A stretch of DNA of 64,000 nucleotides from an archaeon (GCA_043797265.1 JAZDPV010000012.1:13875-77874); one strand, 5' to 3'; numbered from the stretch's first letter, positions 1-64,000 are shown. Notes: a model not told the origin generated them from the letters alone. A program made the numbers and translations.

Positions 1-669
1 ACCAACTGCCAACTGCCAACTAAAGTATACCTCGGTATAGCAGACCAAAATTACGACAACACCGAAATAAAAAAACGCGATATGCAAAAACCAACCCGAC
101 GAGAATCTCTCGCAATTTCGCCCCGACTCTCAAAAATATTAATAAATCTATCCGGCGCAAAACCAAACGATTTACTCCTCGACCCATTTTGCGGAATAGG
201 CGGTATACTTCAAGAAGCCCTCATAAAAAAAATCAACGCCCACGGCGTCGACAAAGATAAATCAGCGACGGAAAATGCAGAGAAAAACCTAAAATGGCTC
301 ACACAAAAATACAAAATCGAAAACACTTACAAAATCGAAAACAAAAACTCCCAAAATATTTCAGGTATACCATTCACAACAATCGCAACTGAAGCCCCCC
401 TCGGCAAACTCCTCCGAAAAAAACCGACCGACAAAGAAGCAAAACAAATAATCCTCGACTTTGAAGCCCACATCATCCCAATCCTAAAACACCTCAAAAA
501 AATAAAAAACCCATCAACAAAAATCGCAATTACATTCCCAATAATCCAAAACTTCCACACCGACGCGGAAAAAATCGCTGAAAAAACCGAACTCAAAATA
601 TACTTAAAACCAATTCAAGAATCTCGTCCAAATCAATTTATCTCACGAGATATTTTAGTCCTACAATAA
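1..669 (+). CDS. SAM-dependent methyltransferase, Trm11/UPF0020-like; 5' end lies outside the window
   Basis: Frame 1 is open from base 1, with no stop before the ATG at 82. Motif I is LLDPFCGIGGIL. There is an in-frame 18-nt tandem duplication at 310-345 (YKIEN twice). Confidence 0.55.
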   Translation, partial: TNCQLPTKVYLGIADQNYDNTEIKKRDMQKPTRRESLAISPRLSKILINLSGAKPNDLLLDPFCGIGGILQEALIKKINAHGVDKDKSATENAEKNLKWLTQKYKIENTYKIENKNSQNISGIPFTTIATEAPLGKLLRKKPTDKEAKQIILDFEAHIIPILKHLKKIKNPSTKIAITFPIIQNFHTDAEKIAEKTELKIYLKPIQESRPNQFISRDILVLQ

Positions 670-730
670 TGTCCAACTCTAAAGTAACAACAACCAAAAC
701 ATTTATAAATACCTTTTTCCTAAATAAAAC

Positions 731-1165
731 ATGGAAAACCTAACTGAAAACGGAATACCACAGAAATACCCATCCGAAAATATTTGGAATACCTCGGGAA
801 AAATAAATTCCGTCGGAAAAGCGAAAGTGGATTCTCTAAAAGACCTCGTCATAGAAATAAACGAGATGATAAAAGAACGAGAAACTTTAAGCAAACGATT
901 CGTCAAAGAAGGCGAAAACATGAAAGCCAACATCAACAACTTCCTTCTCGAAAACGCACCGAAAGGCGAAGACGATTCCGAATTCACACGAGAACGAGCC
1001 GAACTCCGAAAAAAACAAATCGAAATATCCGAACTCCAACTCAATGAAAAAATCAATTGCTGGCGGGACATCGCTCTCCTAAAAAAAGAACTCCGAGAAA
1101 ACACAAAAGAACTAAGCGAAAAAGAATCCCGCGCCGAAATGATAGGAAAAATTCTGGAGGAATAA
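731..1165 (+). CDS. hypothetical coiled-coil protein, first gene of the HerA-like cassette
   Basis: TATA-like cATTTATAAAt lies about 25 nt upstream. The protein is E/K/L-rich and heptad-like. The stop is 1 nt before the next start. Confidence 0.5.
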   Translation: MENLTENGIPQKYPSENIWNTSGKINSVGKAKVDSLKDLVIEINEMIKERETLSKRFVKEGENMKANINNFLLENAPKGEDDSEFTRERAELRKKQIEISELQLNEKINCWRDIALLKKELRENTKELSEKESRAEMIGKILEE

Positions 1166-1166
1166 A

Positions 1167-61991: not shown

Positions 61992-62053
61992 GCAACACCA
62001 TAGCAAAATCAATTTATTAAACTTTTGAAACCCTACGGGTTAAAACATATCCA

Positions 62054-62161
62054 CTTCCAGCATCGACAAAGTCGACGCGAACTTCCAGAAAAATCAAGGA
62101 TTTTCGAACTACCAGCGAAGCGGACTGAAATTAAAAAATCGCCCAATGATTTTTTAATTTC
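62054..62161. repeat. mosaic: three CT(T/A)CCAG-led units, each carrying a small hairpin, then a 14-bp hairpin covering the ABCE1 3' end
   Basis: cttccag+tcgac-AAA-gtcga, cttccag+aaaatc-aag-gatttt, ctaccag+cGAAg unit, then gaaattaaaaaatc-gcccaat-gattttttaatttc (62127-62161). Confidence 0.9.
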
Positions 62162-64000
62162 TGCTCCCTGTCCAAAACACTCCCCCTCTTGTTAATCCTC
62201 GGCCTCCCACTCTCTTTATCTTTTCTCAAAGTAATATCCAAACTTTTCAACAATTCACCAACCCCATCTTCAAAATTCCTAACCTCACTCGCCTCACAAA
62301 CCCCAACTCTTTTCTTTAATTCGTGTTCATTCGTGTTCATTCGTGAGCCCTTACTTTCTCCGTCCATCCGCGAGCCGACCTCAGAAAAATTAATAATCAA
62401 ATCCGCCAAATACGAAACCAACAACAAATCGTGCTCGACGACAAACGCCGTCTTTCCCCTCTCGACCATCACATCCTTAATCGCCTTCGCAACCAAAATC
62501 CTCTCCTCAACATCCAGATAAGCCGACGGCTCGTCCAAAAAATAAACATCCGCGTCCTTCGCCAAACATCTCGCAACGCTAAATCTCTGCAACTCCCCGC
62601 CAGACAATTCCCTCAATTTCTTCCCAACCAAAACCCCAAGATTAAACACCGACGACAATTTCTTATTTATCTTCTCCCTAAAAACAATATCCCGAACAAA
62701 CTCCTCGCTCTCGCTAAACAAATACTGCGACTTATAAGAAATATCCAAACCTAAATCAAGTCCGTGTTTGTCCGTGTTTGTCCGTGTGCTATTTTTCTTA
62801 CCACCAAGTCGTTCAGATATCTCCACATCACAAGAACAATTTTCATCGAGCTCGCCCACCAGCGCCCGCACAAATGACGTCTTCCCCGTTCCATTCTTTC
62901 CCAAAATCCCAATCACATGATTCTCCCTAATTTCCCCACCCTTCACATTTAACTCAAACCCCGAATCAAATCTCAAATTAAAATCAGGCCACTCCCCGAT
63001 TTTTCCCCCAGACACCGACGCATTTTTCGTAAAATTAAAATTCAATTCCTTATCCCGAATCAATAAATTCTCCTCTTTCAAAAATCCCTTCAGATAAGCA
63101 TTAACACCTTCCCTCGAACTCTTGACCCCACTCACCGTCCCGAAAACTCCCTGCGCCCCATAAAACACATTTAAATAATCCGTCAAATAATCCAGCACCA
63201 ACAAATCATGCTCGACGACAATCACCGTCTTATCTCGACCAATCTCCTTGATAAAATCCGAAACTCTCAATCTCTCTCCAATATCCAAAAACGCCAACGG
63301 CTCGTCGAAAAAATAAATATCAGCGTCGCCCAAACTCGCCGCCAAAATCGCAACTCTCTGCAACTCACCACCGCTAAGCTTGTCCATCCTATTCCCCAAA
63401 ATATTCTCGACATTCAACTTCTTCGCTAATTCCCTAATTTCTTTTTTGTCCCCACGATTCTCCAACAACTCCATCACACCAATGTCCTTCGCCAACACCG
63501 ACAAATTCTGCGGCTTATACGAAACCTTCTTGTCTCCAAGTAAATCAAAATATTTCTGCAACTCACTCCCCTTGAATTTCCCAACATCAATTTCTATATT
63601 TCCAGACAAAATTTTTACAGCAGTCGATTTCCCAATCCCATTCCTCCCGAGCAAACCCAAAACTTTCCCAACCTTAGGAATAGGCAAACCATACAACGCA
63701 AACCCATTCGCCCCATATCGATAAACCAAATCTTCCTCACTCACCGACGGCAAATTCACAATATCAATCGCACCCAACGGACATCGCTTCACACAAATCG
63801 CGCACCCAACACAACTTTTCTCATCAATAACACACTTGCCCGATGAAGGTGGCACCTTGGTGCCCTCTATAGAGGGTATGCCGCGTGCGGCGCTACCAAT
63901 AACGACGCAACTATCAGACTCCTTCTTCTCAACCGGACAATATTTCTTACACTCGCGCCCGCACACCGTCGGCTTACATTTCTCCCGATGAACAATCGCC
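62131..64000 (-). CDS. abce1: ABCE1 (RNase L inhibitor homolog); 5' end lies outside the window
   Basis: An Fe-S domain (CPVE..., CVGCAICVKRCP) and two ABC domains (GLLGRNGIGKST, GILGKNGTGKTS). The frame stays open to base 64000. Confidence 0.92.
   Translation of the reverse strand, partial: AIVHREKCKPTVCGRECKKYCPVEKKESDSCVVIGSAARGIPSIEGTKVPPSSGKCVIDEKSCVGCAICVKRCPLGAIDIVNLPSVSEEDLVYRYGANGFALYGLPIPKVGKVLGLLGRNGIGKSTAVKILSGNIEIDVGKFKGSELQKYFDLLGDKKVSYKPQNLSVLAKDIGVMELLENRGDKKEIRELAKKLNVENILGNRMDKLSGGELQRVAILAASLGDADIYFFDEPLAFLDIGERLRVSDFIKEIGRDKTVIVVEHDLLVLDYLTDYLNVFYGAQGVFGTVSGVKSSREGVNAYLKGFLKEENLLIRDKELNFNFTKNASVSGGKIGEWPDFNLRFDSGFELNVKGGEIRENHVIGILGKNGTGKTSFVRALVGELDENCSCDVEISERLGGKKNSTRTNTDKHGLDLGLDISYKSQYLFSESEEFVRDIVFREKINKKLSSVFNLGVLVGKKLRELSGGELQRFSVARCLAKDADVYFLDEPSAYLDVEERILVAKAIKDVMVERGKTAFVVEHDLLLVSYLADLIINFSEVGSRMDGESKGSRMNTNEHELKKRVGVCEASEVRNFEDGVGELLKSLDITLRKDKESGRPRINKRGSVLDREQKLKNHWAIF
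62321..62377. repeat. decamer array and a degenerate second copy inside ABCE1
   Basis: tcgtgttcat tcgtgttcat tcgtgagccc ... tccatccgcgagccg, read as GSRMDGESKGSRMNTNEHE. Confidence 0.85.
62761..62793. repeat. decamer array ending in GCTATT inside ABCE1
   Basis: tccgtgtttg tccgtgtttg tccgtgtgct att, read as KNSTRTNTDKHG. Confidence 0.9.
63851..63891. repeat. three abutting palindromes inside the ABCE1 Fe-S domain
   Basis: ggcaccttggtgcc, ccctctatagaggg and gccgcgtgcggc, read as GSAARGIPSIEGTKVPP. Confidence 0.85.

Follow-up and report, generated by a model that had tools for sequence, protein, structure and literature searches.

Strand-bound base composition and two mirror-image codon sets in a 64-kb chromosomal region of an uncultured DPANN archaeon

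Introduction

The stretch of archaeal DNA analysed here (GCA_043797265.1, JAZDPV010000012.1:13875-77874; 64,000 nucleotides, hereafter the window) has a + strand that is rich in A and C and poor in G whichever way its genes point. The question raised by this asymmetry is whether it belongs to the DNA strand or to the genes, and which process could have produced it. The host is an uncultured DPANN archaeon of the Woesearchaeota/Pacearchaeota group, and the window is ordinary chromosomal DNA. Its arginyl-tRNA synthetase (ArgRS) is 100 % identical to P0001 (NCBI MFH0711913.1 / MFH0833449.1, 'MAG: archaeon') and its aIF5B is 100 % identical to P0122, encoded on a 122,015-bp NCBI contig, so that the window represents about half of that contig.

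Base composition along the window

The strand asymmetry in the window is real. Over the whole 64 kb the + strand contains 22176 A, 19136 C, 14634 T and 8054 G (34.7, 29.9, 22.9 and 12.6 %; GC 42.5 %), giving a GC skew of -0.408, an AT skew of +0.205 and an A+C fraction of 0.6455.

1..64000, + strand A+C-rich (M strand) and - strand G+T-rich (K strand): window-wide asymmetry, from base counts and skews

A first-pass annotation of the sequence had described the + strand as extremely A+C-rich and G-poor, with a sign that never changes. Base counts bear this out: G is less frequent than C, and A+C more frequent than G+T, in 64 of 64 one-kb windows, the GC skew is below zero in each 2-kb window, and the cumulative GC skew is monotonic across the 64 kb. 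Two sample counts given in the same annotation (1 G in 15001-15060 and 5 G in 41041-41100) are exact.

The short spacers between genes (2.5 kb in total) have a composition of A.37, C.285, G.084 and T.26, with a GC skew of -0.54 and an AT skew of +0.17. Larger 'gaps' between called genes hold small genes, e.g. those for L24e, S28e and L7Ae at 45.9-47.1 kb.

Codon and amino-acid usage on the two strands

Codon usage was determined for a set of 47 non-overlapping long open reading frames (ORFs). Clear Pfam identities were obtained for 30 of the 40 largest genes, including ppsA, the glutamyl-, prolyl-, isoleucyl- and arginyl-tRNA synthetases, CTP synthase, aIF5B, eIF2-gamma, gyrA, gyrB, Kae1, deoxyhypusine synthase and ABCE1. 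Representative genes of both strands are as follows, with base fractions at third codon positions.

6971..9409, + strand: ppsA (phosphoenolpyruvate (PEP) synthase / PPDK family; Pfam PPDK_N, PEP-utilizers, PEP-utilizers_C), A.43, C.44, G.08, T.05; an example of the A/C-ending set
28855..30588, + strand: aIF5B / IF-2 (Pfam), A.45, C.42
31866..33074, + strand: eIF2-gamma (Pfam), A.43, C.46, G.08, T.03
40892..43462, - strand: gyrA (Pfam DNA_topoisoIV, DNA_gyraseA_C), A.07, C.08, G.57, T.28; an example of the G/T-ending set
43892..45793, - strand: gyrB (Pfam DNA_gyraseB, Toprim, HATPase_c), G.52, T.34
60339..62012, - strand: ArgRS (Pfam), situated on the G+T-rich strand

Third codon positions taken together are A.42, C.40, G.09 and T.10 in + strand genes and A.13, C.07, G.415 and T.39 in - strand genes. 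Four-fold degenerate sites give the following fractions.

+ strand genes, n=2811: A.398, C.422, G.098, T.082
Genes of the - strand, n=3750: A.102, C.071, G.490, T.337

Individual codon pairs behave likewise. Lys AAA:AAG is 737:56 in + strand genes and 343:573 in - strand genes, Glu GAA:GAG is 535:29 and 254:631, and Phe TTC:TTT is 266:53 and 34:475. The first-pass annotation had proposed mirror codon sets, with almost all codons ending in A or C on one strand and in G or T on the other; the direction is correct, and the actual share is about 81 %. The codon strings that it quoted from 6971 and 43462 are exact, and its naming of the two genes as ppsA and gyrA agrees with Pfam.

The encoded proteins also differ in composition. 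Those of + strand genes are enriched in T and Q (about 2.3-fold), I (1.6-fold), N, P and H (1.4-fold) and K (1.26-fold), and those of - strand genes in V and C (2.3-fold), G (1.7-fold), R (1.5-fold) and D (1.35-fold). A division into K/N/T/P/Q/I-rich and G/V/E/D/R/F-rich proteins, as proposed earlier, is therefore correct except for E and F, the usage of which differs by less than 10 % between the two groups.

Read on the + strand, the A+C fraction at four-fold sites is 0.820 for + strand genes and 0.827 for - strand genes, and the third-position A+C fraction exceeds 0.5 in 47 of 47 genes (range 0.61-0.89). The fraction is not near 0.5 and does not flip with gene orientation, in agreement with the original suggestion of a strand rather than a coding effect. 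The bias belongs to the DNA strand, not to the gene or to the direction of transcription.

Coupling to transcription or translation, through damage to the non-transcribed strand or through codon choice under selection, is very improbable as an explanation. Transcription-coupled bias would make coding strands alike and would flip with orientation; the coding strands of + and - strand genes are instead mirror images, and because they are complementary the effect is not one of transcription or codon selection, either of which is ruled out as the main cause. The main effect does not flip with orientation, and the spacers are skewed too. A small leftover orientation effect is the evidence in favour of such coupling: on the + strand, the four-fold GC skew is -0.62 for + strand genes and -0.75 for - strand genes, and the AT skew is +0.66 and +0.54, respectively.

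Long ORFs of up to 613 aa were also observed on the A+C-rich strand opposite genuine - strand genes. Stop codons may be scarce on that strand because they need T together with G or A, and the ORFs could be mis-annotated as genes.

15721-16872, + strand: long antisense ORF
41354-43195, + strand: long antisense ORF
44795-45826, + strand: long antisense ORF
52850-53653, + strand: long antisense ORF

Distribution of the skew among relatives

Relatives were found from gyrA in GTDB species genomes and JGI metagenomes, and further loci from ArgRS and aIF5B. The relatives' loci (designated L) span about 5-22 kb each, with up to three separate loci per species. The closest gyrA relatives are Woesearchaeota/Nanoarchaeota metagenome-assembled genomes (MAGs), and more distant matches are labelled Pacearchaeota. 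The bias of the window is equalled or exceeded in at least five related species, the assemblies of which come from JGI, ENA, NCBI and Logan. They are listed with the amino-acid identity of their gyrA to that of the window and with the four-fold skews of their gyrA/gyrB orthologues.

Species A (L001/L018/L019, L048-52, L055-58): gyrA identity 88 %, GC skew +0.81 to +0.83, AT skew -0.53 to -0.56
Species B (L002/L020, L053/54): gyrA identity 86 %, GC skew +0.85, AT skew -0.71
Species C (L003/L036): gyrA identity 77 %, GC skew +0.84, AT skew -0.81
Species C' (L022): gyrA identity 79 %, GC skew +0.86, AT skew -0.89
Species D (L025-27): gyrA identity 73 %, GC skew +0.93 to +0.94, AT skew -0.75 to -0.76

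Genes on the opposite strand in species A-D carry the mirror-image skew. The surroundings of ArgRS in L048-54 have a GC skew of +0.41 to +0.45, and those of aIF5B in L055-58 a GC skew of -0.40 to -0.48. Within this extreme clade, relative gene orientation is kept despite rearrangement of blocks: compared with the window, L003/L025 have the eIF2-gamma block and the block of DisA and DHH genes on exchanged sides of gyrAB.

Faults of sequencing or assembly, or chemical damage to the sampled DNA, have next to no chance of being the cause, and nothing was found in their favour. The genes encode full-length conserved proteins, and the amino-acid composition has moved along with the base composition. 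The pattern recurs in independent JGI, ENA, NCBI and Logan assemblies of several species and at several loci, and this recurrence excludes an artefact.

The trait is graded and lineage-wide. Moderate relatives (L030, L021, L028, L006, L038) have a four-fold GC skew of about 0.4-0.6 at gyrA/B, and the Woesearchaeote L010 has no skew there. L028 shows possible sign switches near 5.8 and 18.1 kb, which are confounded with gene orientation and possibly with foreign genes.

Both signs of the skew exist in the wider family. The gyrA gene lies on the A+C-rich strand in L005, L007 and L034, opposite in sign to the window, and in L005 and L034 the opposite sign is found in genes of both orientations. 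L005 gyrA/B has A.57, C.12, G.05 and T.26, with G.21 and T.46 in its opposite-strand genes. The reversed sign at gyrA in these three relatives indicates that composition tracks the strand that a gene occupies and not the gene itself.

Orthologous proteins are pulled in opposite directions according to strand. At codon positions 1 and 2 of gyrA/B, the window has a G+T fraction of 0.515, compared with about 0.48 in relatives; L005, with its reversed sign, has the lowest value (0.468). In genes on the A+C-rich strand, the same fraction declines from about 0.46 to 0.396.

Four-fold GC content also varies within the extreme clade, being about 0.34 in species D, 0.45 in species C, 0.55 in species B and 0.64 in species A and the window; in less-skewed relatives it is about 0.2.

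Substitution process

Substitution rates are stated for the G+T-rich strand and were obtained from about 2000 four-fold sites shared with each of species A and B. The pairwise rate ratios, which assume reversibility, are as follows.

C>T versus G>A: 5.1-6.5
A>G versus T>C: 5.2-7.5
C>G versus G>C: 5-10
A>T versus T>A: 3.5-5.5

Gene orientation makes no difference to the ratios. Per site, the G+T-rich strand undergoes both C>T and A>G about 5-7 times as fast as its complement. The same direction was obtained with a three-taxon general Markov model, which assumes neither reversibility nor stationarity and has wide intervals for rare bases throughout; it gave P(C>T) of.23-.63 against P(G>A) of 0-.07 and P(A>G) of.3-.57 against P(T>C) of 0-.10 on four of five branches. 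Estimates near zero, with a very wide interval, were obtained for A>G on the L018 branch and for C>T on the L020 branch. The model also gave common G>T (.11-.14) on the L003, L022 and L020 branches and a T>G of.11-.21 on the window branch, the latter in line with the increase of four-fold GC within the clade (from about 0.2-0.34 to 0.64). The bias was found in all neighbouring-base contexts (0.10-0.33 A+C); a sequence-specific editing enzyme was rejected as a candidate on account of this independence.

Near-identical contigs of species A (L048-L052, L001/L018/L019) share 99.5-99.96 % identity with few single-nucleotide polymorphisms (SNPs), except for segments in which identity drops to 82-93 %, suggestive of recombination. 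Of their 244 variable sites, the majority fall within these divergent, probably recombinant segments, and 27 are clean.

A fixation bias, in which selection or a strand-oriented conversion-like process favours G and T on one strand, is distinctly unlikely. It gains from the clean species-A SNPs, 10-13 of which run from G/T to A/C against 5 in reverse, as if such changes arise and rarely fix; this sample is tiny, and polarising by outgroup is biased to common bases. Also in its favour, the rates calculated from the pairwise counts fit a model with ordinary transition/transversion exchangeabilities in which the rate towards each base scales with the frequency of that base. We know of no selective or conversion process, however, that would act on the identity of the strand, whatever the gene direction, at both four-fold sites and spacers.

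Origin of the bias

The strand-specific substitution bias in this DPANN clade is probably best explained, by analogy with other genomes, as linked to replication. The replication link is drawn from the sign of the asymmetry, since the excess of G over C and of T over A on one strand is the classical sign of the leading strand. The G+T-rich strand carries 59 % of the coding bases, a weak hint of the same leading-strand identity.

The asymmetric rates show that the substitution process in the lineage differs very strongly between the two DNA strands, whereas the link to replication, the fork direction and the chemistry are inferred. The G+T-rich strand loses A and C by every route, through C>T and A>G and, with an apparently similar bias, through C>G and A>T; unconstrained sites have drifted to about 82 % G+T on that strand, and codon positions 1 and 2, and hence the proteins, are pulled likewise. 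Under the replication-linked explanation, the G+T-rich strand may be the lagging-strand template, exposed as single-stranded DNA, where deamination of C and A, perhaps with bypass of abasic sites, would be fixed through weak repair or long exposure. Forks would then traverse the window from high to low coordinates, and either the whole 64 kb would lie in one replichore or the chromosome would be copied in one direction.

Several results weigh against this explanation. Neither the 64-kb window nor any locus of the extreme clade, at about 22 kb per locus at most, revealed a sign switch, an origin or a terminus; with none of these landmarks found, the replication link is made by analogy. The skew has no slope along the 64 kb (p=0.45-0.74), the window being possibly a small part of the chromosome. 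As to the SNPs of species A, the excess of G/T-to-A/C changes among the 27 clean sites is not what a strong ongoing mutation bias at equilibrium would predict, in a sample too small to decide the matter. C>G and A>T appear about as asymmetric as the transitions, which makes simple deamination incomplete as an account and calls for abasic-site bypass or another process favouring G and T. The rise in four-fold GC came mainly by T>G on the G+T-rich strand, for which deamination gives no account. Abasic-site bypass, polymerase or repair asymmetry and a separate GC pressure are candidates for the extra factors behind the transversions and the GC rise.

The first-pass annotation had attributed the asymmetry to deamination of C and A on a strand left single-stranded for long periods. 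The 5-7-fold faster C>T and A>G agree with this attribution; as a cause deamination is not demonstrated, given the seemingly equal asymmetry of C>G and A>T, the lack of a gradient over 64 kb and SNPs without a G/T excess.

The replication machinery itself, rather than damage, could be the source if the two strands are copied (e.g. by PolB and PolD), proofread or repaired differently, with unlike error spectra; we consider this unlikely, although it deserves more weight than a fixation bias. All four classes of A/C-to-G/T change, transversions included, appear biased, which is more easily obtained from polymerase errors or strand-biased repair, and the bias is independent of neighbouring bases and is a graded, lineage-specific trait, as changes in enzymes would give. 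The two dominant transitions, on the other hand, are exactly the two products of hydrolytic deamination. The present data do not separate the machinery from the damage model.

No origin was found in the 64-kb window, where orc1/cdc6 and origin recognition box (ORB) repeats were looked for. Three matches to repair or replication genes were found in the window by Pfam, none of them informative.

1489-3456: HerA/CedD-like ATPase
11571-13541: gene with an AP_endonuc_2 domain (xylose-isomerase-like TIM barrel)
40149-40805: Cas4-like PD-(D/E)XK nuclease

Weakly biased genes and variable islands

The least biased genes of the window have a low GC content at third positions (GC3) and are seemingly recent, as expected if composition shifts in place by mutation pressure; such partly converted genes fit mutation and fixation bias alike.

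9475..10080, + strand: low-GC3 ORF with a weaker bias (0.63), no Pfam match
37142..40066, - strand: type IIG restriction-modification gene (Eco57I/MmeI-like; Pfam), the least skewed large gene
59826..60338, + strand: low-GC3 ORF with a weaker bias (0.64), no Pfam match

The restriction-modification gene has a third-position A+C fraction of 0.61 on the + strand and a GC3 of 0.27, and its copy in species A shares only 55 % identity with it. The gene has probably arrived recently and has yet to adapt to the composition of the host. The stretch around it (36-40 kb) has about 32 % GC. It forms part of a block (34165-40066) in which it follows a 931-aa gene without a significant Pfam match (sub-threshold Big_13 immunoglobulin-like only). 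In species C and D, no such block separates gyrA from eIF2-gamma; the block is a variable island.

A second region (3457-6970, 3.5 kb), possibly an integrated element, follows the HerA/CedD-like ATPase gene; its ORFs are all small and its GC skew is weaker. Two tRNA genes lie within it. The tRNA-Val gene (3724-3793) has the anticodon AAC and, instead of the almost invariable U of tRNAs, a C at position 33. GAC and U33 would be expected, and both deviations are of the kind promoted by the strand bias (G>A and T>C on the + strand). About 850 nt downstream is a tRNA-Lys(UUU) gene (4569-4638), and a 22-nt 3' segment, GAAGGTTCGAATCCTTCTGTCC, is common to both.

At 48479-50556, a DisA-like diadenylate cyclase gene (DAC and DisA-linker domains) adjoins a DHH/DHHA1 phosphoesterase gene. 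The pair, which is kept in the relatives, suggests that the host uses cyclic-di-AMP signalling.

Tandem arrays and the split isoleucyl-tRNA synthetase gene

The window contains perfect short tandem arrays, mostly of period 7 and also of periods 10, 14, 16 and 21, with 2.4-5 copies. Under a strict definition, 8 arrays were found in the window and 0 in 20 shuffles.

22768-22794: strict array
43839-43871: strict array
46394-46432: strict array
52791-52824: strict array
53947-53977: strict array
56600-56644: strict array
62319-62345: strict array
62760-62787: strict array
11475-11557: further array
47395-47429: further array
60604-60633: further array

Tandem arrays are frequent in species A and B (L048, L053, L020, L058, L018, L019); none was found in species C, species D or any less-skewed relative examined. 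Arrays within genes (ABCE1, Kae1, ProRS and ArgRS) are in-frame insertions without a counterpart in relatives, and some of the insertions lie in essential genes. One site in ArgRS carries different heptamers, namely GGTTTCG in the window, AGTTGGA in species A and GGGTCGT in species B, and strains of species A differ by two copies in one 21-nt array. Slippage-prone replication is one possible origin of the arrays.

The isoleucyl-tRNA synthetase (IleRS) gene (55967-58857) is divided into two ORFs, 55967-56647 and 56737-58857, that do not share a frame. They are separated by 2.8 tandem copies of the 16-nt unit AGCGAAGCGGACTACC (56600-56644), and the frame would return on removal of two copies. 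Nearly the same unit is also tandemly repeated at 46394-46432. In relatives, IleRS is a single gene of 956-967 aa. Either a genuine frameshift or polymorphism or a fault of the assembly could account for the split.

Implications

To our knowledge, and within the literature searched, no cellular chromosome has a stronger strand asymmetry, and no archaeal case of this size has been described before. The effect illustrates how far a genome can be divided, by mutation pressure alone, into two dialects of codon usage with differently composed proteins. Used as a marker of the replication strand, the bias could reveal how DPANN archaea replicate; their origins, fork direction and polymerase usage are, as far as we know, largely unknown. 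The gene loss or change that triggered the process could be sought along the graded series of relatives.

Strand-dependent amino-acid composition can distort concatenated-protein trees and estimates of MAG completeness in DPANN. The skewed composition also appears to mislead gene callers. In species A, at L055 8029-10475 (also in L057 and L058), public gene calls comprise only antisense ORFs of 41-118 aa, and three intact + strand genes are missed there, the orthologues of window 30623-31051, window 31191-31835 and eIF2-gamma (402 aa).

Comparison with known systems

Replication strand asymmetry is known from bacteria and some archaea, where the leading strand is G+T-rich and codon usage may be strand-specific, e.g. 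in Borrelia burgdorferi; whole-strand skews in typical genomes are roughly 0.05-0.2. The asymmetry of the window resembles replication skew in its independence of gene orientation, in the excess of G over C and T over A on one strand, in its presence at synonymous sites and spacers, and in spilling into codon and amino-acid usage. It differs in strength, the four-fold GC skew being 0.62-0.75 for the window (whole-strand value -0.41) and reaching 0.94 in relatives, and in that neither the window nor the loci of the extreme clade showed the change of sign at origin and terminus by which replication skew is defined.

Vertebrate mitochondrial DNA, to which the first-pass annotation had likened the window, also has an A+C-rich and a G+T-rich strand with strand-dependent codon sets. 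The human mitochondrial L strand contains about A 31, C 31, T 25 and G 13 %. The likeness is good in this respect, the compositions being near-identical, and C>T and A>G are both raised on the G+T-rich strand; the window thus combines the GC skew, AT skew and substitution pattern of the mitochondrial type. A skew gradient with position was not seen within the 64 kb, possibly a small part of the chromosome. The window, moreover, belongs to a cellular chromosome, on a contig of at least 122 kb, and there is no evidence here of strand-displacement replication.

No such asymmetry has been reported for DPANN, Woesearchaeota, Nanoarchaeota or Pacearchaeota in the literature searched, outside which most subscription journals fell. 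The nearest published precedent in that literature is Ca. Chazhemtobacterium aquaticus Ch65, of the order UBA1400 of Microgenomates in the Candidate Phyla Radiation (CPR), in which a G/C disparity extends over the whole chromosome (Kadnikov et al., 2020; PMC7143001). Ch65 has C 29.83 and G 14.97 % with A 27.87 and T 27.33 %, the sign is the same throughout its closed chromosome, and replication in one direction was proposed. Whole-chromosome disparity was also found in Collierbacteria and Beckwithbacteria and is absent from more distant lineages (PMC7143001).

The two cases are alike in that both concern an ultra-small, probably symbiotic, uncultured lineage, with a trait common to related and lacking in more distant lineages, C far in excess of G on one strand (C 29.9 and G 12.6 % in the window) and genes roughly balanced between the strands. 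Ch65 is a bacterium without A/T disparity, whereas the window is archaeal and has an AT skew of +0.20, or about +0.6 at four-fold sites; a G/C disparity without A/T disparity, as in UBA1400, does not describe the window, where the four-fold AT skew is +0.54 to +0.66. The whole chromosome is known for Ch65, compared with 64 kb here and loci of about 5-22 kb in relatives.

By analogy with these systems, it is conceivable, if doubtful, that the DPANN clade copies its chromosome unidirectionally or with a long-delayed second strand, as mitochondria do, and it may have lost the archaeal safeguards against deaminated bases. If so, one strand would be exposed and decaying towards G+T genome-wide, and an organelle-style replication asymmetry would have arisen in cells, in parallel to the CPR order UBA1400.

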